A stretch of 64,000 nt of DNA from an uncultured Gammaproteobacteria bacterium. Lineage in GTDB: Bacteria; Patescibacteriota; Patescibacteriia; PEXW01. Of the stretch, positions 37,436-53,412 are shown piece after piece (positions within the stretch are counted from its first letter, which is position 1; each line of letters begins with the position of its first letter). The position numbers and the translations under genes were made by a program. The notes beneath the pieces were generated by a model. The model was not told the DNA's origin. It saw nothing but the letters and a program-made list of their open reading frames with translations, and did not search any database. The stretch covers positions 19,505 to 83,504 of the forward strand of contig CAZAMC010000003.1 of the NCBI GenBank assembly GCA_964486505.1, read 5' to 3'.

Positions 37436-39232
37436 CTACTGAGCCTGCAGTTGCTTCTGGATACCCGCTCGGAGCGTCTGCATATTCACGATATCTGTAG
37501 CGTAGGCAGGGTTGGCCGACCACGACCCTTCGGGATACGCCGCCAAAGCTTTGTCAACAACCGCTACGGCATCGGCCAGACGTTTCTGTGAAATGAGGAA
37601 GTTGGCGTACTCCCCAGCAATGTCTAAGTGGAAGGCATTGTCATACGTCACAGCCTTCTGAAAAGCGTGCTCTGCGTCCGCGTAGCGCCGGTCGGAATAC
37701 TCCACGCGGCCCAGTAGCCGGTACGTGAAGTAATTTGTGGGTGCCCATGCCAATGCTCGGTGCAGCTGCTCACGAGCCCGTTGGAGTGCGCCAGCATCGC
37801 CAGGAGCGCTCACCCACAGCGCTTCGGCAAGTTGGTTGCGACGCGTGGGGTCGGGGTCGTAGCGCAAGCCTTGCGCGTATGTTTGCACGGCGCTCTCGGC
37901 TTCCCCATGCGCTAACGCCCGGTCGGCCCGTTCAAAGTAGGTCCAGGCATACGCCACGCCCAAACCCCGAACGAAAACAATGAGGGCGATCACAACCATG
38001 ACGCTGGTCACGGCAAATCCTGCACGTCTGTTCGGCGCGGTGGTTGGGCCAGCCAGCAAGCCGGCCAGGATGAAAAATGCCACCCACACCGCGGGGAAAT
38101 GCCAACCAAAATCCACGGCGGCGGCAATAGCGCTCCCGCCAATAGCGACGCTCAACCAGGCAAGGTGCCTCTGGTCGGCATTCAAGTCTCGAAAGCGCTC
38201 CGCCACCCGCATCGCCAAAATTATGAACCCGCCCACGAACGCCAGCGCCACCAGCCCGCCGGCTTCTGCGGCAATCTCTAGGTACGCATTGTGGGTGTAC
38301 CGTGGTTGCTCAAAGAGCGTTCGCGCGTATCGCGGGTACGAAATTTGGTATGCCCCAAGCCCCACCCCGGTAAATGGACGGTCGATGAGCATGTCCACGG
38401 CGCTCTGCGCAAAATGCCACCGCTGGCTAAAGCTGGAACGGAAGTGCTCCCCTGAGATGACTTGATCAAGCCGAATTCCCGCTTGGAAGCTCTTCAGCTG
38501 CACCGATCGAAGCCCAACTACCCCTCCCAACAGCACCAACAGAATACCCAGGCTCCACACCACGCGGCGAACATTTACCACGCGCCGGCCAGCTATTACT
38601 ATGCCAATGATGGCGGCCAGGCCCAACCCAAACCATGCCGTGTAGGAATACGTCCGCAGGAGAGCAACGGCAATCACCCCCACGCCGAACCAAGACACAA
38701 TCCGCCAACGGCGCGAGCTACCCAGGGCAACGGCAACACCCACCGGCAGAACGAGCGCTAAGAATGCGCCGAGAGCATTCGCGTTGCCAAGCAGCCCCCC
38801 AGCCCGGTCTGCGCCTTCGGTGAACTGGCTTACCAACGCCCACGCGGCACTGCCCGCCCCGCCAACAAAAACCCAACGGAGTACGTTAGGAACATACGGC
38901 CCAGGGATTTCCCGAGCGGCAATGAACGTGGTGAAGCCGATGAACAGGTACGTGAGGTTCCGAACCGACGCGTAGTGCTGCTGTGACCACACTGCCGTAA
39001 GGGCTGCCAGTGCAAATGTGGCAAGGAACCACACCGTGGGTGAACGCCAGCCTCCCGCCAAAGGGTGCGCGTGGCGAGAAAAAATGACGAGGAGCAACGT
39101 GAGAATGCCAAGAACCGCATCCACCCAAGGTGACCAGTCACCCCCAATGACCGTGGCTACCAGGAAGGCAACCACGAGCGACACGGGCAATATGGATTCG
39201 CGGTGGAGGATCATGCCTAGGGTTGCGGGCAC
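37436..39232 (-). CDS. Wzy_C (O-antigen ligase/PglL-PilO-type oligosaccharyltransferase) family membrane protein with C-terminal TPR repeats
   Basis: 10+ TM; periplasmic-loop motif DRPFTGVGLGAYQISY...YTHNAYLEIAAEAGG; C-terminal ~170 aa TPR-like. The start overlaps the pilin stop by 16 nt. Confidence 0.7.
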   Translation of the reverse strand: MPATLGMILHRESILPVSLVVAFLVATVIGGDWSPWVDAVLGILTLLLVIFSRHAHPLAGGWRSPTVWFLATFALAALTAVWSQQHYASVRNLTYLFIGFTTFIAAREIPGPYVPNVLRWVFVGGAGSAAWALVSQFTEGADRAGGLLGNANALGAFLALVLPVGVAVALGSSRRWRIVSWFGVGVIAVALLRTYSYTAWFGLGLAAIIGIVIAGRRVVNVRRVVWSLGILLVLLGGVVGLRSVQLKSFQAGIRLDQVISGEHFRSSFSQRWHFAQSAVDMLIDRPFTGVGLGAYQISYPRYARTLFEQPRYTHNAYLEIAAEAGGLVALAFVGGFIILAMRVAERFRDLNADQRHLAWLSVAIGGSAIAAAVDFGWHFPAVWVAFFILAGLLAGPTTAPNRRAGFAVTSVMVVIALIVFVRGLGVAYAWTYFERADRALAHGEAESAVQTYAQGLRYDPDPTRRNQLAEALWVSAPGDAGALQRAREQLHRALAWAPTNYFTYRLLGRVEYSDRRYADAEHAFQKAVTYDNAFHLDIAGEYANFLISQKRLADAVAVVDKALAAYPEGSWSANPAYATDIVNMQTLRAGIQKQLQAQ

Positions 39233-42775: not shown

Positions 42776-43195
42776 TTACTTCACCAGACGCTTTACTTTT
42801 GCCACAACTTCCGAGGGCATGAAGTGGGCTTTAATAAGGTAGTCGGTAGCGCCTAGTGCAAAACCCTTCTGCACGTCTTCCTTCTGGCCCAGGTTAGTGA
42901 GGAGTACCACTGTGGTGGCCTTTGTCTGAGGGTCTGCCTTTACTTCTTTCAAAACATCGAAGCCACTCTTCTTGGGTAAGACGACGTCCAGTAGCATGAG
43001 CTGGGGCTGCTCCCGTTTGGCAAGAACCAGCGCTTGTTCGCCGTCACTCGCGAGCACAACACGAAAGCCCTCGAGCTCGAGCTTTGTTACGTACATACCG
43101 GCCAAAAAGGTATCATCCTCAACGAGGAGAATTGTGCGCTTGCGGCTCTTTTCGGCCGGGCGCGAGGCGCCATTCTTCTTCAGTGCTTGGGGCAT
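42776..43195 (-). CDS. Single-domain response regulator (REC only; PilH/PilG-like position)
   Basis: LLVEDD, LMLLDVVLP, TNLGQKEDVQKG..ATDYLIK. Sits between pilT and pilB. Confidence 0.8.
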   Translation of the reverse strand: MPQALKKNGASRPAEKSRKRTILLVEDDTFLAGMYVTKLELEGFRVVLASDGEQALVLAKREQPQLMLLDVVLPKKSGFDVLKEVKADPQTKATTVVLLTNLGQKEDVQKGFALGATDYLIKAHFMPSEVVAKVKRLVK

Positions 43196-43207: not shown

Positions 43208-44971
43208 TTACTCTTGCGTAGCGCGCAAAACTTCTTCAACGGTGGTCATCCCCAACGTGGCCTTCACAAAACCATCTTGCTGCATGGTGATGACGCCCTG
43301 CCGCTTCGCTTCGGCTTTAATGTCGGCGAGCTTCGAACCGCTGGTGATGATTTGCTGGAGCTGATCGGTAACCTCAATGACCTCGGCCACGACCAAGCGG
43401 CCTTTGTACCCGCTGTTCCCGCAGCGCGTGCAGCCTTTCCCGTGCATGAACTGCATCTTATTTTCTAGAGAGAAGTCCTTCGGGAGCGCTTGAACTGGGG
43501 CGGTGCGGAGCGAATCTATAACTTCTTGCTGTGTGGATTTCGGAATCTCCTGTGGTTCTTTGCAGTACTCACAAATGCGGCGCACCAGACGTTGGGCAAT
43601 AATTGTAGAAAGTGAGGAGGCAATGAGGAACGGTTCCACTTTCATATCTATGAGGCGCGGAATGGCCCCAAAGGCATCGTTGGTGTGGAGGGTGGAGAAC
43701 ACCAAGTGACCAGTGAGGGCGGCGTTGACGGCGAGCTCCGCCGTCTCGGTATCGCGAATTTCACCAACCATGACCACGTCGGGGTCTTGGCGCAGGATAG
43801 AACGCAGGCCGTTGGCAAAGGTGAGCCCGACTTCCGGGTTAATCTGGCTCTGGTTCACGCCTTCCATGTGGTACTCCACCGGATCTTCCAGGGTGACGAT
43901 GTTAATGTCTTCCGTGTTAATCATGCCCAGCAGCGTGTACAGCGTGGTCGACTTACCCGAGCCAGTGGGGCCCGTGCTGAGCACCATGCCCTGGGTGGAA
44001 TCGAGCGACTTCACCAGAACCTCTTTTTCGCGGGCAATGAAGCCCAGGTCGTCCAGATTCAGCTTCTTGGCCGATGAGTCAAGAATACGCATGACGACCT
44101 TCTCATTGTTCATGAGCGGCAAGGTGGAAACGCGTAGGTCAATGGACTTGCCGTCAACTTCGGTGTGGAAGCGTCCGTCTTGCGGCAGACGAGTTTCATC
44201 CAGCTTGAGGTTAGAGATGACCTTAATGCGCGCTACGATAGCGGCGTGCACGTACGGCGGAAGCTTAATGGAAGTATGAAGGATGCCATCAACACGGTAG
44301 CGGACGCGCGAGCCTTCGGCCGTTGGCTCAACGTGGATATCGGAGGCGCTGCCTTCAATGGCGTGGCGCAGAATAACCGCCACCATTTTCGAGACCGGCG
44401 CCGTCTTAATGACTTCCTCAATGCCCTTATCGGCTAAGCTAATCTCATCAAGGGGGCTCGTGGTTGGCTTCTCCGTGGGGGTGGCGGCTTCCAGCGCTTC
44501 CTGCACTTCAGCGGTGAGACTGGCGTACTGTTTGAGTATGCTGGTGATGGCCGAGGCAGACGCAATGTGGTACTTGAGCACAAAGTTCCGGTTCCGAGCC
44601 AGGAACTCCACCGCTTCCAACGCCCGGAAGTTGGTCGGGTCAACCAGAGCTATGCTCAACTCGTGCCCATCCTTAGCAAAAGCGACGAGCTGGTAGTTCT
44701 TCGCGAGGTCCCGCGGAATAATGTTCAGGAGGTCGGGCGAAATGACGCGGCCTTGGAGATCGATGTACGGGATTTGAAATACCTCGGCGCGGGCTTGGGC
44801 GATACTGTCGTCACGGACATAGCCTTGTTTTTCAAGTATCTCAAGAACCGAGACATGCTTCGCCCGTGCTTCCCGCTGGGCAATATCCAACTGCTCACGC
44901 GAAATGGCTTTCTGTTCTAGCAGAACAGCCGCGATGTCGCGCAGGGGTGTTTGTTGCACAGCAGTGGTCAT
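43208..44971 (-). CDS. pilB: Type IV pilus assembly ATPase PilB (GspE family)
   Basis: N-terminal GSPII_E_N domain; Walker A GPTGSGKSTT; tetra-Cys CEYC...CTRC. Confidence 0.9.
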   Translation of the reverse strand: MTTAVQQTPLRDIAAVLLEQKAISREQLDIAQREARAKHVSVLEILEKQGYVRDDSIAQARAEVFQIPYIDLQGRVISPDLLNIIPRDLAKNYQLVAFAKDGHELSIALVDPTNFRALEAVEFLARNRNFVLKYHIASASAITSILKQYASLTAEVQEALEAATPTEKPTTSPLDEISLADKGIEEVIKTAPVSKMVAVILRHAIEGSASDIHVEPTAEGSRVRYRVDGILHTSIKLPPYVHAAIVARIKVISNLKLDETRLPQDGRFHTEVDGKSIDLRVSTLPLMNNEKVVMRILDSSAKKLNLDDLGFIAREKEVLVKSLDSTQGMVLSTGPTGSGKSTTLYTLLGMINTEDINIVTLEDPVEYHMEGVNQSQINPEVGLTFANGLRSILRQDPDVVMVGEIRDTETAELAVNAALTGHLVFSTLHTNDAFGAIPRLIDMKVEPFLIASSLSTIIAQRLVRRICEYCKEPQEIPKSTQQEVIDSLRTAPVQALPKDFSLENKMQFMHGKGCTRCGNSGYKGRLVVAEVIEVTDQLQQIITSGSKLADIKAEAKRQGVITMQQDGFVKATLGMTTVEEVLRATQE

Positions 44972-46152
44972 AGGGCGATGAAGGGGTTCGCCCGACCGGG
45001 TACGGATAAATCTTGAGTTGTCGATCGATTTCCCGCATTGTCAACAGCCACGACGGTGTAGTACGCCGTCGCGCCCGCCACGACTTCGGTATCTTCAAAG
45101 CACAAGGTTTTTGCGCATTCAGTGCCAGTCAATTGCGCTGCATCCTGAAGTTGAACCAGGTCTTTCACAAGCTTCGACGCTACTAAAGCGCCAAGATTCA
45201 TGGCCTGGTTCGAGCGGAAAATGCGGTACTCCACGACATCGGCAGACGAGGACGGCTCCCAGGTTACCCGCATGCGCGGCTGGGCGCTATTCGTTGTATC
45301 GAGGATCGCCCGCACTCCATCGGGCGGGTTCGGTGCGGTTGTGTCCGTTGCGAGCACGCTCACTGTGGCGGGCGTACCACTCCCCGTTGCGCCCACCCAG
45401 CGGAATGTGTAGAAGTGCAGTCCCGCCCGACCGCTCGCATCTTCAAACGTGCTGCCGTCGGTGCCCAACCGGGCTACCCGGGCCCCGAGGACCCCCACTT
45501 CTGCCGACCGGTACACTTCAACGTTCTCAAATTCGCCATTCGGTTTCCCATACTGCAGGGTCACACCATTGTCATCGGCGCGTGTGACACTCACCAATCC
45601 GCCCACCGAACCCGCCGCGGCAGACACCTGTGGCGACTCTTGGAGTATCGATTGTTGAATGTAAACTACTTCGTAGGTAATGCGCGTGCCTGTTGGCGCC
45701 TCACGGAAGACGTAGGTCGTTGACGGCACCGGTAAGGTTGCCAAATTCTTGCGTTCTTCACTCCCCACAATCTGGTTCACCCGCACGAGCGTCGCTCGAG
45801 TCTCGTCCGTTGGGCGTTCCCACGTGAGGAGCACGGCGCTCCCGGTTTGCATGTCAAACCCCTGCAGTGATTTTGGTGGGAGCAGCAGTTCCGATGGACG
45901 ACTTGCCGAGGCCTGCGTAATGAGGGCCGTCCCCTGCTTGGGCACAAGGCCGTAGAAACGGCTATCACTGAAGAGATCTTGTCCAAAATCAGTGGGTACG
46001 GTTTTCTTCGCTGGCGCTTGCGTAACCCCCACCGGCTCCGCCCCGCTGAAAAAATTCACGTACACAACGTACCCTGCTAGAAGTGCAAGGGCCACGCCGC
46101 CCCCAATGAGGAGGTAGCGAATGCGATTTGGGGCTTGTTTTTGGACGAGCAT
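44968..46152 (-). CDS. Single-pass membrane protein with two fibronectin type III-like domains (possible PilP/Q-replacing component)
   Basis: N-terminal TM, then VLLTWERPTD... and MRVTWEPSSSADVVEYRIFRS...YYTVVAVDNAGNRS FN3 signatures. Confidence 0.5.
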   Translation of the reverse strand: MLVQKQAPNRIRYLLIGGGVALALLAGYVVYVNFFSGAEPVGVTQAPAKKTVPTDFGQDLFSDSRFYGLVPKQGTALITQASASRPSELLLPPKSLQGFDMQTGSAVLLTWERPTDETRATLVRVNQIVGSEERKNLATLPVPSTTYVFREAPTGTRITYEVVYIQQSILQESPQVSAAAGSVGGLVSVTRADDNGVTLQYGKPNGEFENVEVYRSAEVGVLGARVARLGTDGSTFEDASGRAGLHFYTFRWVGATGSGTPATVSVLATDTTAPNPPDGVRAILDTTNSAQPRMRVTWEPSSSADVVEYRIFRSNQAMNLGALVASKLVKDLVQLQDAAQLTGTECAKTLCFEDTEVVAGATAYYTVVAVDNAGNRSTTQDLSVPGRANPFIAL

Positions 46153-46155
46153 ACG

Positions 46156-46752
46156 TTACTGCTGGAGGTAGTAGCTACGGAAAGAAAAGCTGTACGACGT
46201 GGGGGTAGACCCGCTGGAAGGCGTGTGTGAAATTGCCGTGAGATCCAAGAGGGGGGCTTGCCGGGATACTACATCGAGGAAATTCTTTAATTGGGTATAG
46301 TTCAACTGACCACCCAGAATGACGGAGACGGTAAGGGTGTGAACATTGCTCGCCGTTGCTTGCTCGGCAGTTGAAGCGATAACCGCCCCATCGGCAACGG
46401 ATACCGAGAGGAGCTCCATGCTTGCCTCGCGGGCAAAGGCTTGCATTTGCCGGAAAATACCAGGCACATCTTTGCCCTTAGGCAACACCGCATCCAGGCG
46501 CGCGAGGTCATCGTTCGAGATGGTGCGGAGTTCAGCCCGAAGCGCCTGCAGATCTTTCAGGTATTCCTCTTGCACTTTCAGTGTCTCAAGCTTCTGGTTG
46601 TAATTCAGCCCACCTAATTCTTTCACGGTCCGGTACCGCGGCACAATAATGGTGTAGGCGCCAATGATGAGCACGAGCACGGCAACAACAGCGCCAACTG
46701 CCAAAATGTGGCGGAGGAGGAAGCGGGTAATGCTGGTGAGAGACAAGCGCAT
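46156..46752 (-). CDS. pilO: PilO-like inner-membrane pilus alignment protein
   Basis: N-terminal TM plus coiled coil plus ferredoxin-like C-terminus; position after pilN. Confidence 0.6.
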   Translation of the reverse strand: MRLSLTSITRFLLRHILAVGAVVAVLVLIIGAYTIIVPRYRTVKELGGLNYNQKLETLKVQEEYLKDLQALRAELRTISNDDLARLDAVLPKGKDVPGIFRQMQAFAREASMELLSVSVADGAVIASTAEQATASNVHTLTVSVILGGQLNYTQLKNFLDVVSRQAPLLDLTAISHTPSSGSTPTSYSFSFRSYYLQQ

Positions 46753-46754
46753 GG

Positions 46755-48035
46755 TTAGCGGTAGAAAATCGTTGGTACGACGTGCATGGAAATAGAGAAC
46801 GTCACCAGCGGCTCAGCAGTTGGTGCAGTTTGGCCTGGAGGGGTAGCAGAGGGGGAACCGCCTGTAGACTGGGTGGATCGGGTAGCGGTGGAAATCGTTA
46901 CATCGGTAATGAAATCGGTGGCACGCTGGAACGTGAGCAGCTGGTCGCCCACATCATTAAAGGACTTCGCGGTGGCATTGAGGGTAACGGTACCGGAAAT
47001 GTCTACTGACATGCTGGAGTACGCCACATTCGGCAGGGTTACCGCTTCCAGCCGCTTGAAGAACTCGTCCCAGTAGACGTGCTGGCTCAGCAAGGTACGC
47101 ACATCATTTGCGCGTTGCTTCAAGACGAGCGCATCTTGGAGATCAACAGTTTCATATTCCCGAGCCGCGTGCAGGGCTTGCTGGTACTGTTCGTCAACAC
47201 GCTGCACTTTGTTCTCTAAGTTTCTTTGGTAGAAGTAAAGTCCCAAGCTCACCGCCGTCACGAGGAGGATTGCGCTCCCCACGGTGATGAGCGCAAAGAG
47301 GCGATTGCGAGGGGAAACTTCCGGCTGAAATTCTTCCGGGACCAAGTTGACATTTAATCCTTGCCCCAGGACGGGCGCGCCATTGGTCGCGGCCGGCGCC
47401 ACTTCCGGACGAGCTGGAGCAACAGATTTTCGTACCGGCTGGAATGCCGGTGGGGGTGGCGGTGCAGGTACGACGGGGACAGACGGGCGTTGCACCGGGG
47501 CCACCGGAGGCAGCGGTTTTACGGCCGGTGGAGGAGGCGGTGGCGGTGGGGCCCAAACTTGTCGTTTCGGTTCTGGTCTAACTGGCGCCGTCGGTGCCGG
47601 TGGGGGTGGAGGGGGAGGAACAGCGGCCCGGGGGGTTACGCCTGGTGCATCCGGCCGGGATGCAGAAGCTGCAGACTTTGAAAACAAGCGCGTGAAAAAG
47701 CTCGCGTCGGTTTCTGTCGGCCTGGGTTGCGTCGGTAACCGATCACTCATCGTCTCCAGGCGAGTGACTAGCCCAACGGGTGCGGCAGGATGGGGGATCT
47801 TCGGGGCAGGTGGCGGAGGTGGTGGCGCCGCAGGCTTCGCTTTGGCTGGCAACTTCGGGGCACGTTTAAAAATTCGCTTGAAGAATTCTAGCACTCCACC
47901 CACTCGAACAACGCGCTCCTGGAAGACCCGGTCATCCGGTTTGGTCATTTCCACAAGCTGCTCAGGCTGAGCGGGTTTATCACCGCGCTTCAGCTGCTTG
48001 TCTTTGGTCGGGAGTAAATTAATGTTGGATTCCAT
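46755..48035 (-). CDS. pilN: PilN-like protein with ~230-aa proline-rich insertion between the INLLP motif and the TM helix
   Basis: MESNINLLPTKDK (PilM-binding motif). Runs of PPPPPPP, three or more. TM LFALITVGSAILLVTAVSLGLYF plus coiled coil. Confidence 0.65.
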   Translation of the reverse strand: MESNINLLPTKDKQLKRGDKPAQPEQLVEMTKPDDRVFQERVVRVGGVLEFFKRIFKRAPKLPAKAKPAAPPPPPPAPKIPHPAAPVGLVTRLETMSDRLPTQPRPTETDASFFTRLFSKSAASASRPDAPGVTPRAAVPPPPPPPAPTAPVRPEPKRQVWAPPPPPPPPAVKPLPPVAPVQRPSVPVVPAPPPPPAFQPVRKSVAPARPEVAPAATNGAPVLGQGLNVNLVPEEFQPEVSPRNRLFALITVGSAILLVTAVSLGLYFYQRNLENKVQRVDEQYQQALHAAREYETVDLQDALVLKQRANDVRTLLSQHVYWDEFFKRLEAVTLPNVAYSSMSVDISGTVTLNATAKSFNDVGDQLLTFQRATDFITDVTISTATRSTQSTGGSPSATPPGQTAPTAEPLVTFSISMHVVPTIFYR

Positions 48036-48043
48036 ACCTGGGC

Positions 48044-49156
48044 CTACGCACTAAGTTGACGGAGACCAAGACCAACGGCCACGGCGAAACGCGGGCCAAT
48101 TTCATTCCATACCGGCTTCAGTTCCACGGGGTACGAAATACGGGCCCAGGGATCACCAATGTAGGTCCGGATGTTGAGGAGTTTTGTGAAGTACTCTGGC
48201 AAATTTGTGAGGAACGCCGACCCACCCGCGAGAATAATTTTATCAATGCTCCGGCCTGTGCCTTGGTTTTGGAACAGGTTCAGCACGTACCGAATTTCGT
48301 TGGTTATTGAATTCACCACGAATTCGATGGCTTTGGGGATGTTGCTATCTGCAGCACCCTGGGTGGAAATGAAGAAGTCCCGCTTGAATTGCTCGGCGCG
48401 ATCATTGCTCACGCGCAACGTACTGGCAATGGTCTTGGTAATTGTGTCGCCCCCAACATCAATAGAGCGCGTAAGCATGGGGATGCCCTCGCTGAACACC
48501 ACAATGTCAGTGGCCACCGCCCCAATGTCCACAATCATGATCGGTGCCCGATCGTGGCCAATGAGTGAACGCTCCAGGGCAAATGCTTCGGTTTCCAGGG
48601 CCACCAGCTGCAAATCAGCGGCTTTGAATATCTCCATGTACCGCTGGACTAGGTTCTTCGGCGCCGCGGTCAGCAACACTTTCATGTCCTTTGTAGCCGC
48701 CTTACTCTCATCCGCTTTCGGCTCGGGTGGCCGAGCAACGTTGGCACCGGCAACTTTTGCGGCCAGCGTGTCGTCCTTCAGCACCTCCCAGTCCAGAATC
48801 ATTTCATCCACAGGCATGGGGACGAACTTCTTCGCCTCCCACTTCACGGCGGACATCAGCTCCTTCTTGGACATCTGCGGCAGCGAGATGATTGAACTGA
48901 ATACCGTAAAGCTCGGCAGCGAGGTTACCGCTAGACGGGAAGTTGTCCGTGACGCTTTCACAACTTGCTTCAGCGCATCTACAATGGCTCGCATTTCGTC
49001 GGCCACGCTGTTCTTCAAGAGGTCGCTGCGCTTCTCGGCAAAACCATAGGTCACCAACGTTGGCCGCCCATTATCTGACCGTAATTCGACAGCCTTAATT
49101 GAAGAGCCGCCAATATCGACGCCGAGGAAACTTTGCTTTGAAGAAAAGAGGGGCAT
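48044..49156 (-). CDS. pilM: PilM (actin-like ATPase)
   Basis: FLGVDIGGSSIKAVEL N-terminal motif; 370 aa. Confidence 0.8.
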   Translation of the reverse strand: MPLFSSKQSFLGVDIGGSSIKAVELRSDNGRPTLVTYGFAEKRSDLLKNSVADEMRAIVDALKQVVKASRTTSRLAVTSLPSFTVFSSIISLPQMSKKELMSAVKWEAKKFVPMPVDEMILDWEVLKDDTLAAKVAGANVARPPEPKADESKAATKDMKVLLTAAPKNLVQRYMEIFKAADLQLVALETEAFALERSLIGHDRAPIMIVDIGAVATDIVVFSEGIPMLTRSIDVGGDTITKTIASTLRVSNDRAEQFKRDFFISTQGAADSNIPKAIEFVVNSITNEIRYVLNLFQNQGTGRSIDKIILAGGSAFLTNLPEYFTKLLNIRTYIGDPWARISYPVELKPVWNEIGPRFAVAVGLGLRQLSA

Positions 49157-49163
49157 GGGGAAT

Positions 49164-52100
49164 TTATGGCAATTCTCGGGTAGGATTGGGCAGCGCTTTC
49201 GTTACATCCTCTAGGCCGGGGGGCGGATTCAGGAAGAGCCGCTGGTCAAACGTTACCTGCTCCGCCGGCTCGTCAATCGTGTCGAGTGCGCCCGTGCGGG
49301 TAAAGTTGAACTTCCGGGCAAAGAGGAGGCCTTCAATGGTAAGTGGATTGCACTTCTTATCGGTGCCCCCGCAGAAAGCGGCATCAGCATCGTTCCCAGT
49401 ATCAAAGGCGCCACCACACCCATCGAAGCCGTACTCAGAAGCGGTGCACGCTGCCGATGGAGTATCGGCATTGAGGTCAGGATCTTTTGACGAGTCCCGG
49501 CCGATAACAATGAAGGCGCCGGTAATGCGATTGACCTCTTTCGCAATGCTCACGTTCCCCCGCACTATGAATGCCGCCGCCATAGAATCCCGTATGGAAG
49601 CGGGGGTAACCGCTGCAAGGTCAAGGTCTTTGGTAGGATCTGAGGCAATGATATTATAATGAATTTTTAGATCACCGTCCACTACGAACGTGATGTTCCG
49701 CGGCAAGGTTTGGCCAACTGTATAGGGCATGCGCCACACCCAACGGATAGTAGTGCCTAAGGGGTGATCACTCGCGGTATAGGGGTTCCCGCTTATGGTT
49801 CGTACACCGGTTAACTGATTCCCACTCTTACCGGTGTAGCTCAAGTACTCTTCTTTCCCGCTGCCCGTGCCAAGAATTACGGTGCCAGACAAGGGGTACG
49901 TGGCACTTGGGGTTGGGAAATTGGCTGCTGAGGCCAGCGTGAGCGTGCCCCCAGCGCCATTAATCGCTGCCCGCTGCCCACTGACCGCCACCGTGAGCGT
50001 TGAGGCCGCAATATTGGCCTCATTCGGGTCGTGCCCAATGGTCAAGTCGCCTTGGATGTGCACAACTTGGTTCTCAATAGCATCCAACGGGATGTCCGGA
50101 GGCGAACCACCACCCCCTGGCGGGGTATACGCAAACTGACCCGCCAGCTCATTCACGGTCCAGTCCACGGGCGTTGTGCCATTCTTGGTGGTCACGAAGA
50201 TTTTTTGGCCAAAACGGTTTGTAGAACGTTGGTAATCTTTTGTACCCAGAATGTCATTGTATGGGGCGAGCCCCGTCACATCTTTCGTTAGACCACCAAC
50301 GTCAAGTTTGCCAAGAGCATTGCGGTAGGTGGCGGTTGAGGTCTGTACGGACGGGAAACCAAACGTGTTCGGCGCCGAAGCACTATCACGGCCAAAGAGC
50401 TCGGGCGCAGTAGTGCCCAGCGACCGCGAGCAATCGGTATAATTCCCGTCAAACCCACACGCGCTATCCCCGGCAAGCAAATTCTGGAGGAAATCTATGG
50501 AAGCCGAAGAACCTGGTGATACAGACTGGCCCGACGGGTGCGCCAGTGGTTGCAACGTGCCGTTGGTTTCAATGCGATAGGTACTCACGTAACACGCTTC
50601 ATCCCCGTCGCCGTCACCATCCAAGTCGCGGCCGCAGGACGTTAACCGTTCTCCGGTTAAGCGTTGGGCATCGGGCAATTGGAAATTCCCCGCATCGGCG
50701 CCGCCACCGTTGACGTAAATATTCCCGAAGAGCGTTTCTAACCAGGCATACCCCAAGAAGATGAGCGGGTTGAAACGAATCCACCCGTACTCCCCGCTCC
50801 ACGCCCAACCAGAAAGAAGGTAACCATTCCCCGAATAGTACGCATTCACGCCGTAGTCACCGCCTGCTGCGTATACAGGCGTTCCAATAGAGTAATTCCG
50901 AAGAATGTCATTCGTCACCAAATTCAGTACAGGTTCACCAAAAATATCGGTGCCGATGCTTGAGTAGTAGAAGTACTCTTCGCCGATAATGCCAATTTCA
51001 TTCTTCCCGGTAACGACTGGGTCGGGGAAGGTGCTTGCATCAACAACAGGGAGCTGCGAATTCCCTGAAGCATACGCTCGTCGCAGGGTTGAGGTCTTTG
51101 TGGAATCCCGCCAGTAGCCTTGGAAACGCACCCACCCGCCTTCGGCGTCTCGGCACCGGTACGTGCCGCCCCCAATGTCCTGGTAATTGCAGAGATTCAA
51201 GAAACGCCCCCAACCATTGAGCCGTTGGGACGTCTTGTCGTACTTTAACGTAGGGTCACTCGTCAACACGCTGTTGCGATATGCCTGTCCGGGTGGGTTG
51301 CCGTAGTTGTTGTCATCGGTCAGCGGATCGGCATCACCACAGTTGCCCACGGCCCCGCAGTCGTAGGCGCTATGCAGACGGTTGAAGCTTAAAAAACCAG
51401 CATTACTGGACCAGCCAAATCCGCTCGCGGCGTACGTCATGTCTGTTGGCGTGGGGGAAAAGTTAACAGTGGGCGGAGAATTAACCGGCGCCACCGCAAG
51501 ACTAGTGCCGTACGGTGAGCTCCCCGGTGGCGCGCACGCATCCGTGGACTTTGCATTCGCACAGTTCATTGAGAGCCAACCAAAGTTCGATGACCAGCCG
51601 TAGCCATACACGTTACCCCCCGAATTCGCAGTGAAGGCCAACGCTTGCGCACCCACCCGTTCCCACGCCACAGGTGGTAACCCGCTATTCAAGGTCACGG
51701 CTCCTGAAGTTACCGGTGGCATTATCGGCGAGTATGCCTGCCCCGTAACGCCAGTGCTATCATCAAAGACCGCAGTTGTAGACCAGGTATAGGATGCAGG
51801 GGGGACTTGGTCCTCTTTAAAAATTGCCAATCGGTTGGTGGATAAATCGCGCATGGCTAGGTATGCCGAGTTTCCATGGAAACCCACCACCGGTGCCGCG
51901 TACGTACTTGCCCCAATGTACGGAGAAGCGCCAAAGGTTGCGTGGGCTACGCTGTTTGCCTGCTGGCCAATGATAAGTGGAATAGACATCACGCGCACGT
52001 GGTTCTGGTGCGCTTGGTCCTGTGCGTACGTTGTGGATGTGTTGTCGTGCCCTCCTTCATACGCGATAACCAGCCGAGACGAATCGGTGCCGGTGGGCAG

Positions 52101-53345
52101 CGCTGCTGCGGAAAAGCTAAAAGATAGTGCCCCAATGTTCGGCGCGCCAGAAGTGGGAGAGCACGCGTCCAGCCAAATTGCCGGCTCAACGTTTTTTACC
52201 GTATAGGGAATCCAGGAATTCGCATTCGCTTTATCCGCCATCACCGAAACCTGCATACCCAGTATGTACGGCAAACTTTGATAACAATTAACTACGTCCA
52301 CCGAGAACTCGCGTCCAACAACACGGACGATTGCGGGGGAAGCATCGGTACCTGTGGGCACGAGAATCGTCTGCGCATCACCAGATAAAGGCCAATTGTA
52401 CCGCTTCCAGAACGCCCAGGGGTCATCACCGCTGACAAGTCCATAGTCGGGAACGCCATCAGAATTCGTATCGGTCAGGCTCTTGCCCATGTTGCTCAGC
52501 TGCCAGGTTGGATTCGCAGTGGTGAAGTTATCGGTATAGAAAAGGAAGGTGTAGCCATCGGCACAACTTGTGTGAAAATCCATCACCACCCACAGACGCT
52601 CACCCGCGCCGTACTTCTGGGCCAGCACCGAGGTTGTTGCCGCTCCTTCATACGTGCTGTTACCAGGGCAGTTCCCGAGCTGTGGCCAGGGTCGTACCGA
52701 CGCAGCATAGGGAACGTGGTTGTGCGTGGAAGCGGCGCCCATGACCCATTGCTTGGTGCTTGGATTCCAAGTGAGCTTCTGGACGTGAACACTACCATTG
52801 CCCGCAGTGTCGCCCGTGTACGCCACCCAAATACTGGAGCGATCCCAGCTTTGCGTAACCGTGTAGTCAAGGCGCAGCCGGCTGCCCGTGTTCACCAGAA
52901 GAACGGGGAGGTACTGGGTTGCGCTCTCAATAGCGCGTGACCAGGTGACGCCTTTGTCGCGACTCATTTTAAATTCAATCCGGCAGAGCTTATGGCTGGC
53001 GTCTATAACTGTGCACGCACTATCGTCGTCATTCACATAGGCCACAAAGAAAGCCTCTACCCCGGGCTCTGGCTCCATGTACAGCATCTTGGTTCGCTCC
53101 TGCCGCTCCGGCCGCCACGCGTATACGTTATCGGAAAAAGAAAAGGGGGCTATCTCCCTCTCCCACCCAAAATTTTCGTACGGGGTTGCCGCCTCCGCGT
53201 ATTGAGCTCCACTAACAATTGTCGTAGGGGTGGTAAGTGCCGCCTGCGCTACTCCTGACGTTACAAAAAACCCAATCAGCGAAAACGCCGCAGCCCAGAG
53301 TGAGCCGCGGAACCACTTTGCATTACGCCATGTGCTAACAAGCAT
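49164..53345 (-). CDS. Giant secreted surface protein (~1394 aa) with BNR/Asp-box, GW-aromatic repeats and DxDxDG Ca-binding run
   Basis: Start reset to MLVSTWRNAKWFRGSLWAAAFSLIGFFVTSGVAQA (signal peptide). SRDKGVTW Asp-box. Repeats GWSSNFGWLSMN, GFGWSSNAGFLSFN, NGWGRFLNL, GGWVRFQGYW, GWAWSGEYGWIRFN. DLDGDGDGDE. Confidence 0.6.
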   Translation of the reverse strand: MLVSTWRNAKWFRGSLWAAAFSLIGFFVTSGVAQAALTTPTTIVSGAQYAEAATPYENFGWEREIAPFSFSDNVYAWRPERQERTKMLYMEPEPGVEAFFVAYVNDDDSACTVIDASHKLCRIEFKMSRDKGVTWSRAIESATQYLPVLLVNTGSRLRLDYTVTQSWDRSSIWVAYTGDTAGNGSVHVQKLTWNPSTKQWVMGAASTHNHVPYAASVRPWPQLGNCPGNSTYEGAATTSVLAQKYGAGERLWVVMDFHTSCADGYTFLFYTDNFTTANPTWQLSNMGKSLTDTNSDGVPDYGLVSGDDPWAFWKRYNWPLSGDAQTILVPTGTDASPAIVRVVGREFSVDVVNCYQSLPYILGMQVSVMADKANANSWIPYTVKNVEPAIWLDACSPTSGAPNIGALSFSFSAAALPTGTDSSRLVIAYEGGHDNTSTTYAQDQAHQNHVRVMSIPLIIGQQANSVAHATFGASPYIGASTYAAPVVGFHGNSAYLAMRDLSTNRLAIFKEDQVPPASYTWSTTAVFDDSTGVTGQAYSPIMPPVTSGAVTLNSGLPPVAWERVGAQALAFTANSGGNVYGYGWSSNFGWLSMNCANAKSTDACAPPGSSPYGTSLAVAPVNSPPTVNFSPTPTDMTYAASGFGWSSNAGFLSFNRLHSAYDCGAVGNCGDADPLTDDNNYGNPPGQAYRNSVLTSDPTLKYDKTSQRLNGWGRFLNLCNYQDIGGGTYRCRDAEGGWVRFQGYWRDSTKTSTLRRAYASGNSQLPVVDASTFPDPVVTGKNEIGIIGEEYFYYSSIGTDIFGEPVLNLVTNDILRNYSIGTPVYAAGGDYGVNAYYSGNGYLLSGWAWSGEYGWIRFNPLIFLGYAWLETLFGNIYVNGGGADAGNFQLPDAQRLTGERLTSCGRDLDGDGDGDEACYVSTYRIETNGTLQPLAHPSGQSVSPGSSASIDFLQNLLAGDSACGFDGNYTDCSRSLGTTAPELFGRDSASAPNTFGFPSVQTSTATYRNALGKLDVGGLTKDVTGLAPYNDILGTKDYQRSTNRFGQKIFVTTKNGTTPVDWTVNELAGQFAYTPPGGGGSPPDIPLDAIENQVVHIQGDLTIGHDPNEANIAASTLTVAVSGQRAAINGAGGTLTLASAANFPTPSATYPLSGTVILGTGSGKEEYLSYTGKSGNQLTGVRTISGNPYTASDHPLGTTIRWVWRMPYTVGQTLPRNITFVVDGDLKIHYNIIASDPTKDLDLAAVTPASIRDSMAAAFIVRGNVSIAKEVNRITGAFIVIGRDSSKDPDLNADTPSAACTASEYGFDGCGGAFDTGNDADAAFCGGTDKKCNPLTIEGLLFARKFNFTRTGALDTIDEPAEQVTFDQRLFLNPPPGLEDVTKALPNPTRELP

Positions 53346-53367
53346 GGGAGTGTTGTTTTGTAAAAAT

Positions 53368-53376
53368 ATTGTACCA
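53368..53376 (-). promoter_or_regulatory. Extended -10 TGGTACAAT, 22 nt upstream of the giant-protein ATG
   Basis: Follows the terminator of the upstream adhesin-like gene. Confidence 0.4.
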
Positions 53377-53412
53377 TGAAAAACATAAAAAAGCAAGGGC
53401 TTCAGTTTCACT
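53376..53412 (-). terminator. Rho-independent terminator AAGGGCTTCAG-N5-CTGAAGCCCTT + T6
   Basis: 11-bp stem and T-run on the minus strand after the 602-aa gene. Confidence 0.55.

Follow-up and report, generated by a model that had tools for sequence, protein, structure and literature searches.

The type IV pilus (T4P) locus described here lies in a 64,000-nucleotide window of contig CAZAMC010000003.1 (positions 19,505 to 83,504; assembly GCA_964486505.1), which is deposited as an uncultured Gammaproteobacteria bacterium and placed by GTDB in the Patescibacteriota. Its pilN gene is one unbroken open reading frame (ORF) at 46755..48035 on the minus strand, read from the ORF list and its translation as 426 codons and a stop with an ATG start. 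The initial annotation had delimited this ORF correctly, although it gave no strand. Directly upstream, 8 nt away, ends pilM (48044..49156, minus strand, 370 aa), which encodes the presumed binding partner of PilN and matches Pfam PilM_2 (5e-45) and Thermus PilM (PDB 2YCH, 3.2e-31). Directly downstream, after 2 nt, comes the ATG of a pilO-like gene (46156..46752, minus strand, 198 aa) with a weak match to Pfam PilO (0.0091). The order pilM–pilN–pilO-like, as expected for a pilN gene, recurs in related loci whose contigs span both sides, and the pilO-like gene holds its place in every related locus examined whose contig reaches that side.

On its own, the sequence evidence for PilN is weak. The protein scores 17.7 bits against Pfam PF05137 (PilN), below the gathering cut-off of 22.8, and the same family is matched at E up to 0.05 in five of the 15 rows of alignment A2 (the window protein and 14 homologues), the best at 5.9e-5. 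No NCBIfam family covers the window protein, for which only a weak match to Amuc_1101_fam was seen. Since searches of PDB sequences with the N-terminal 30 aa and the C-terminal 203 aa gave no meaningful matches, we turned to fold comparison. The top Foldseek match of the first AlphaFold model is EpsL (2w7v). With a 36-sequence alignment, AlphaFold predicts a core of pLDDT >90 in which a long transmembrane (TM) and coiled-coil helix (residues 242–317) leads into an alpha-beta-beta-alpha-beta-beta domain, that is, the coiled coil and ferredoxin-like core of the PilN/PilO/GspL/GspM fold.

The single TM helix (residues 246–268; 47232..47300, minus strand) is the only strongly hydrophobic stretch of the protein, with the 19-residue Kyte–Doolittle mean reaching its maximum of 2.39 at residue 246; the initial placement of the helix near residue 265 was thus roughly right. 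It forms the first part of a continuous AlphaFold helix (242–316 in the A2 model), and it is directly preceded by basic residues (RNR). An extracytoplasmic coiled-coil helix follows (residues 269–316; 47088..47231, minus strand; AlphaFold helices 242–294 and 297–317, pLDDT >90), and the ferredoxin-like core completes the chain (residues 317–426; 46758..47087, minus strand). By context, motif, topology and fold, the window protein belongs to the PilN family, within which it represents a divergent branch from the candidate phyla radiation (CPR).

The protein has two INLLP-type motifs. Motif 1, INLLP at residues 5–9 (48009..48023, minus strand), is an N-terminal copy of the PilM-binding motif of PilN and was located at exactly these residues by the initial annotation. 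It is invariant in alignment A1, and its family consensus is M-x-D-I-N-L-L-[P/K]-[D/E], and as part of the N-module it reads M-x-[D/S]-I-N-L-L-P-[D/E]. The second motif, GLNVNLVPEEFQPE, contains VNLVP (residues 229–233) and ends 12 residues before the TM helix, at the usual position for PilN. The juxtamembrane region around it, LGQGLNVNLVPEEFQPEV (residues 223–240; 47316..47369, VNLVP core 47337–47351, minus strand), has a mean identity of 0.77 (here and below, identity to the window protein over 15 close relatives). In 36 diverse sequences Val229, Asn230 and Leu231 are invariant and Pro233 is at least 90% conserved, and the family consensus of motif 2 reads [D/E]-V-N-L-[V/I/L]-P-E-E. The candidate PilM-docking peptides of the window protein are MESNINLLPTKDKQLKR and GQGLNVNLVPEEFQPEV.

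Residues 223–426 already form a complete canonical PilN, with juxtamembrane VNLVP, TM helix, coiled coil and the ferredoxin-like domain that pairs with PilO; for the window protein, binding to the PilM cleft and a PilO heterodimer are both predicted. Because this part is complete, the approximately 220 residues ahead of it are an N-terminal addition, and not an insertion into PilN as first described. They bring the cytoplasmic part to 245 aa, whereas a PilN tail is expected to have some 30 aa. The accompanying claim, that the PilM motif has been moved about 230 residues away from the membrane, describes half the picture: motif 1 is indeed distal, but a second motif stands at the canonical position, 12 aa before the TM helix, and is kept there in 102 of 105 long members of the family.

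Conservation along this arm is strongly patchy. Its first 60 residues, the N-module (47856..48035, minus strand), have an identity of 0.68, higher than that of the periplasmic core (residues 317–426, 0.61), and comprise motif 1, a basic stretch, VEMTKP, DRVFQERVVR and amphipathic helix 1. VEMTKP (residues 28–33; 47937..47954, minus strand) is a short linear motif of the form [IV]-E-[MLYF]-[TS]-x-P, in which Glu29, Met30 and Pro33 are invariant in A1; the proline is more than 90% conserved in the diverse family. Helix 1, VLEFFKRIFKR (residues 48–58; 47862..47894, minus strand), combines a hydrophobic F/L/I face with a basic face and carries a net charge of +3. Its hydrophobic moment of 0.89 is matched by only 0.6% of shuffles (p about 0.006), AlphaFold models it as a helix (38–56 in the A2 model, 49–56 in the A4 model), and it is predicted to bind the membrane.

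The remainder of the arm (residues 61–222; 47370..47855, minus strand) is a proline-rich, predicted-disordered spacer. Its pLDDT is mostly 44–72 and its only secondary structure is a three-residue helix (113–115); over residues 1–240, AlphaFold orders the short amphipathic helices and nothing else. Proline makes up 33% of residues 60–225 and forms four runs, all on the minus strand, of 6 (residues 71–76, 47808–47825), 7 (140–146, 47598–47618), 8 (163–170, 47526–47549) and 5 (192–196, 47448–47462), where the initial count had been 7, 8, 8 and 5. The runs are encoded by mixed CCN codons and do not form a DNA tandem repeat; expansion of such a repeat was rejected as their source, since the sole entry in the Tandem Repeats Finder output is a weak 24-nt CGGTGG array beneath the codons of the 8-Pro run. 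Eight consecutive proline codons, and runs of 5–7 elsewhere, should stall ribosomes unless EF-P acts, and stalling at residues 163–170 might tune the output of PilN relative to the translationally coupled pilO.

The proline-rich spacers are poorly conserved (identity 0.22–0.34, with many in-frame indels) and are interrupted by conserved elements. The island VTRLETMSDRLP (residues 90–101; 47733..47768, minus strand) has an identity of 0.69 and is gap-free in 15 sequences, with Val90, Thr91, Met96 and Arg99 invariant in A1. Amphipathic helix 2, ASFFTRLFSKS (residues 111–121; 47673..47705, minus strand), is weaker than helix 1 (moment 0.56, charge +2); it includes a match to the family motif (FFTRLF) and the AlphaFold helix at 113–115. 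A further island, PKRQVWAPPPPPPPP (residues 156–170; 47526..47570, minus strand; identity 0.54), joins a clade-conserved [KR]-x-x-W-[AST]-P-P to the 8-Pro run. This W-A-P-P island is found in 14 of 15 complete relatives and in a relative truncated by its contig end (L016), and is absent from L010 through a 44-aa repeat indel. L010 (2993–4135) and L001 (1477–2751) are mutual closest relatives, and the in-frame indel between them consists of one PPAPTMPAKPARVPAPPPPPPPAP-type repeat and the A-W-A-P-x-P-P island, which points to a repeat-mediated length change, or to assembly collapse, in the proline-rich spacer.

A long cytoplasmic proline-rich region, as the initial annotation proposed, is genuine, but its description as a polyproline II (PPII) tether does not cover the conserved islands or the two aromatic/basic, MinD-like amphipathic helices. 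That proposal would make the N-terminal INLLP the single functional PilM site and the polyproline a semi-rigid PPII tether, which would keep PilM at a distance of tens of nanometres from the membrane and, by proline recognition, recruit other cytoplasmic partners. Motif 1 agrees with this in being the exact canonical INLLP and invariant in the clade, as does the high proline content with its runs of 5–8, and the R-x-x-W-A-P-P islands could serve as ligand sites. We nevertheless consider a free tether quite unlikely: no element of the protein is more conserved than motif 2, which keeps the canonical distance from the TM helix, the amphipathic helices point to an arm associated with the membrane, proline content is not conserved across the family (see below), and no proline-binding proteins of the SH3, WW or EVH1 type were identified in this analysis.

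Annotated homologues suggest a much shorter protein. With the C-terminal 203 aa as query, a word-indexed protein database returned 14 homologues, all of them annotated at approximately 131–219 aa and most beginning just before motif 2, as would be expected if the true PilN started near residues 212–231 and the upstream part were not translated, belonged to another gene on either strand (on the antisense strand, a Gly-rich one) or resulted from a frame error. The DNA of these and other loci argues against such an artefact. At six metagenome loci of the homologues, a 'gap' of 600–750 bp after pilM is in frame with pilN, and its first codons, which follow the pilM stop directly, read M-[E/D]-S-x-INLLP. 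Nine more loci, from GTDB species representatives, contain eight complete ORFs of 380–455 aa and a ninth (L016) that is cut by the contig end and carries the extension. Overall, every one of the 15 complete relatives (380–455 aa, independent assemblies) retains the long frame, and the truncated L016 adds a 16th locus with the extension. The N-terminal ATG stands directly after the pilM stop in every locus examined, and despite many indels all length differences between relatives are multiples of three.

The pattern of substitution leads to the same conclusion. Between L001 and L010 the extension differs at 9 first, 8 second and 45 third codon positions, with 39 synonymous and 15 non-synonymous changes, and a third-position excess in the sense frame is found in all ten relative pairs tested. 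From the synonymous excess and the third-position bias it follows that the extension is translated and under purifying selection. The view that the proline-rich region is not a frame error is thereby confirmed; a frameshift that splits the gene and a lack of the region in relatives, both raised by the initial annotation, were looked for and neither was found. Frame error and assembly chimera are ruled out by the frame being intact in independent assemblies. A short canonical PilN translated from a conserved internal start is ruled out as well: relatives have no conserved start codon upstream of motif 2, and the window has none at all within 16 codons of it.

The antisense candidate is a Gly-rich ORF of 207 aa at 47347..47970 on the plus strand. 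It is a shadow ORF and not a gene, being a by-product of CCN codons on the opposite strand, and the codon-position substitution counts, which favour the minus-strand frame, rule it out. Spurious antisense Gly-rich ORFs have nonetheless been called over the proline-rich part in five records from four distinct loci (L001, 1392–2219; L002/L003, 5762–5974; L007, 1811–2161; L008, 677–1075; all minus strand). In all seven truncated calls whose DNA was checked, six of the 14 homologues and the divergent P0039, the in-frame extension is present. P0039, a 'short' member of 213 aa, is itself a truncated call, with 299 more in-frame codons that encode amphipathic helices and an 11-Pro run. Four full-length gene calls do exist (P0015–P0018, 404–433 aa; exhaustive library). 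Taken together, these data make an artefact at our locus scarcely credible, and they show that gene callers systematically cut the PilN family to about 200 aa. Through this truncation and the spurious antisense ORFs, protein databases under-represent the true architecture of PilN. Neither the N-terminal 132 aa nor a 27-sequence N-module profile found any match in the word-indexed database of 5.8 billion proteins, where word-index and E-value limits apply to a short low-complexity query; that this is a limit of the method is clear because an exhaustive phmmer search recovers full-length members.

The source of the window is an ultra-small bacterium of the Patescibacteria. The closest relative (72% identity) is a 'Patescibacteria group bacterium', and the related GTDB loci belong to metagenome-assembled genomes of the Patescibacteria group, including Candidatus Kerfeldbacteria and Parcubacteria. 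One locus (L012, CAZBMC010000023.1) is labelled 'uncultured Gammaproteobacteria', yet it has a Patescibacteria-type long pilN with the same extension; a binning or labelling error is the probable cause.

The exhaustive phmmer search, run against 1.84 billion representatives, gave 1722 matches at E <=1e-3 and 603 at E <=1e-10, and we could locate core and TM helix, and so parse the architecture, in 113 of the best 150. A cytoplasmic extension of at least 80 aa is present in 105 of the 113 (range 80–594 aa; median over all 113, 213 aa). Motif 2 lies 9–18 aa before the TM helix in 102 of these 105 long-extension representatives, and 86 of them have both motifs. A hidden Markov model of the N-module matches 117 of the 148 representatives of the family. 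Across 100 extensions, the strict amphipathic motif [FWLIM][FW]xx[FLIMW][FLIMWK] is seen 88 times where shuffles predict 5.0 (18-fold), at 1–4 per arm with a median spacing of about 100 aa, and its count climbs with arm length (Spearman 0.33, p 0.001). This definition was more informative than a hydrophobic-moment cut-off of >=0.7, which detected helices in just 26 of 99 arms.

Comparison of length and composition, which the initial annotation had suggested, shows that long extensions are common but that their proline content is not conserved: the family median is 13%, many arms are rich in Lys and Glu, spacers of other lineages being of K/E/P-rich composition, and the window arm has the highest value (25%). 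High proline content is specific to the window clade. The family shares a disordered arm, the N-module, amphipathic helices and motif 2, whereas polyproline as such is not conserved. As a whole, the initial interpretation is partly supported. Two very long members of 702 and 778 aa occur in the same operon context; at the locus of the latter (L018), some 355 bp (2416–2770) lie between pilM and the called start of pilN, compared with 3–12 nt in the window clade. Judged from these sequences, the architecture is widespread in Patescibacteria. Full-text literature searches returned no account of a PilN whose cytoplasmic extension is long, whose motif is duplicated or which has amphipathic helices, so the long-arm architecture is apparently undescribed. 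PilN is among the T4P components enriched in CPR (PMC6744442), and this paper and a CPR preprint (PMC11623550, = PMC12206443) only list PilN as present or enriched.

The best explanation of these features, and one to which we give an even chance, is a PilN that offers PilM two docking sites close to the membrane, with a disordered leash between them. Motif 2 would dock one PilM at the usual site beside the TM helix, and the N-module would dock a second PilM or keep it in reserve. The N-module repeats the logic of the PilN N-terminus, with a putative docking motif followed some 40 residues on by a presumed membrane anchor, here an amphipathic helix and not a TM helix. Helix 1, and with it helix 2, probably lies on the membrane and would pin the second PilM to the inner leaflet. 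The proline-rich spacers would act as a non-collapsing, expanded leash that sets the roaming range of the second site, and may carry further short linear motifs for other partners (VEMTKP, VTRLETMxDRLP and R-x-x-W-A-P-P). The net result would be a bivalent PilN that raises the local concentration of PilM or cross-links the PilM ring. We infer that either motif binds PilM, that the helices, by their sequence, bind the membrane, and that the stoichiometry is 2:1.

Several observations weigh against this explanation. The proline of motif 1 is replaced by Lys in about a quarter of the family (INLLK, IDFLK) and by Gln, His or Ser in others, while motif 2 almost always has Pro; the two sites may therefore not be equivalent, and should the PilM cleft depend on this proline, motif 1 may have another mode of binding or another partner. 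The presumed anchor of motif 1 is also some 40 aa away, compared with 12 aa for motif 2, and no more than 66 of 100 extensions have the strict amphipathic motif. Finally, the W-A-P-P island is gone from the close relative L010, and so not every island is essential.

The divergence of motif 1 at the proline position in many lineages also favours a different proposal, namely that motif 2 binds PilM and the N-module recruits another protein with the actin fold (FtsA, MreB, or a paralogue of PilM) or a different component of the T4P machine (PilB, PilT, PilC or the response regulator), which would couple pili to the divisome, the cytoskeleton or the motors. The FtsN peptide in the IA–IC cleft of FtsA shows that peptide binding of this kind is a general mode for the fold (PMC7613929), and VEMTKP and DRVFQERVVR are without counterpart in canonical PilN. 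On the other hand, both motifs share the core D-[IV]-N-L-[LVI]-P-[DE], suggestive of one class of pocket for the two, the neighbouring gene is pilM, and the 17 selected ORFs scanned in the window T4P locus include no second actin-like gene. We regard another partner for motif 1 as unlikely.

The similarity of the two motifs could alternatively reflect competition for one PilM cleft. The arm would then work as a switch within the molecule, controlled for example by the membrane or by nucleotide, and would tune how PilM is engaged and hence pilus extension versus retraction. Two near-identical motifs on a flexible linker are a classic autoregulatory pseudo-ligand layout, and binding of PilN reportedly modulates the structure and partners of PilM, to go by the title of a 2016 paper by McCallum et al. 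However, we have no evidence of a switch element, and arm lengths of 80–594 aa are hard to square with a tuned intramolecular competition, which makes this mechanism very unlikely.

The proposed two-site arrangement matters since it is through PilM and PilN that the cytoplasmic motors of T4P are coupled to the membrane platform. To our knowledge, the cytoplasmic part of PilN in characterised systems is always a short tail that bears just one docking peptide. A long disordered arm that is conserved and under selection, with a duplicated docking motif and anchors of its own, implies a different cytoplasmic architecture. If PilN is bivalent, a 2:1 PilM:PilN ratio, a cross-linked ring, or a membrane-held reservoir or corral of PilM would be expected, unlike the 1:1 ring of model diderm systems, and this docking module would be invisible in annotations because gene callers routinely truncate these genes. 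We extend the proposal to Patescibacteria T4P machines at large only tentatively, and think it somewhat more probable that it fails there than that it holds: these would have a bivalent PilN whose second PilM site sits on a leash of 80–600 residues, held at the inner leaflet by helices resembling the MinD membrane-targeting sequence (MTS). T4P of CPR/Patescibacteria are thought to be central to host-cell attachment, motility and DNA uptake (PMC6744442, PMC11623550).

Beyond pilO, the same strand of the window encodes a conserved 394-aa protein, pilB, a response regulator, a pilT-like ATPase, pilC, pilins, a Wzy_C/TPR protein and the prepilin peptidase (pilD). A Pfam scan of the T4P locus covered 17 selected ORFs, and neither PilP nor PilQ was seen among them; because of this, we classify the locus as monoderm-type and secretin-less. 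The 394-aa protein (44968–46152, minus strand), between pilO and pilB, shows a faint fn3 signal and otherwise matches no family. Its position is kept in every related locus whose contig spans the site (308–405 aa), and it may be a CPR-specific platform or alignment component in place of PilP/PilQ. Between pilB and pilT lies a stand-alone response-regulator receiver protein of 139 aa (42776–43195, minus strand), which is retained in the four relatives whose loci reach that far (L002, L006, L018 and L019). The Wzy_C (O-antigen-ligase-like) and TPR protein (37436–39232, minus strand) is encoded amid the pilin genes and may be a pilin glycosylation enzyme. Directly upstream of pilM, a giant protein of 1415 aa (49164–53411, minus strand) without Pfam match may be a pilus-associated surface protein or adhesin; syntenic giant ORFs in relatives encode 1349–1444 aa, and 5586 aa in L019. 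PilM itself has an insertion of about 20 aa at residues ~128–148 (the DDTLAAKVAGANVARPPEPKADESKAATKD region) in the HMMER alignment with Thermus PilM (2YCH).

Among known systems, the FtsN–FtsA pair offers a parallel in principle for peptide docking. The cytoplasmic peptide of FtsN binds the IA–IC cleft of the actin-fold protein FtsA, and an amphipathic helix takes part in membrane attachment (PMC7613929). As in that pair, the window PilN spans the membrane as a bitopic protein and carries a cytoplasmic peptide for an actin-fold IA–IC cleft, which is here predicted by analogy. In FtsN–FtsA, however, the amphipathic helix is on FtsA and the tail is short, whereas here the helices are on the PilN arm, and there is no sequence similarity between the systems.

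The helices of the arm have their closest counterparts in the targeting sequences of MinD, FtsA and MinE, which are likewise short, cationic and amphipathic with an F/L face. Over the family, the helices of the arm have the consensus G-F-F-S-R-L-F-G-R-K-K, which closely resembles the C-terminal MTS of Escherichia coli MinD. By itself the amphipathic helix of the MinD MTS is weak, and it becomes effective at a valency of at least 2 (PMC6803595). Unlike those sequences, the helices in PilN are internal to the disordered arm of an integral membrane protein and not at the terminus of a soluble ATPase.

Proline-rich, low-complexity segments also serve as extended spacers in other envelope machines, such as TonB and cyanobacterial PilT2. 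The spacer of TonB is periplasmic, whereas the proline-rich segment of the window PilN is cytoplasmic by topology and its proline-richness is specific to the clade. For cyanobacterial PilT2, a proline-rich N-terminus has been recorded (PMC12288463).

A large cytoplasmic N-terminal part on a protein of this fold is known from the type II secretion proteins GspL/EpsL/XcpY/PulL and from Amuc_1101-type PilM–PilN fusions, in which a folded actin-like domain is covalently fused. The window PilN resembles GspL in the size of this part and differs from it in that the extension is predicted to be disordered (pLDDT mostly 44–72, no domain, no Pfam match) and offers docking peptides only, with PilM encoded by a separate gene. 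The normal cytoplasmic tail of PilN has about 30 aa (PMC7613929), and a cleft of PilM is bound by the first eight PilN residues (PMC6325625). Compared with the canonical T4aP proteins of Thermus thermophilus, Pseudomonas aeruginosa and Myxococcus xanthus (PDB 4BHQ, the 2YCH complex and the 3JC8 model), whose tails are likewise of some 30 aa, the window PilN has a cytoplasmic part of approximately 245 aa, in which the motif recurs at the N-terminus and amphipathic helices are set among disordered spacers rich in proline.

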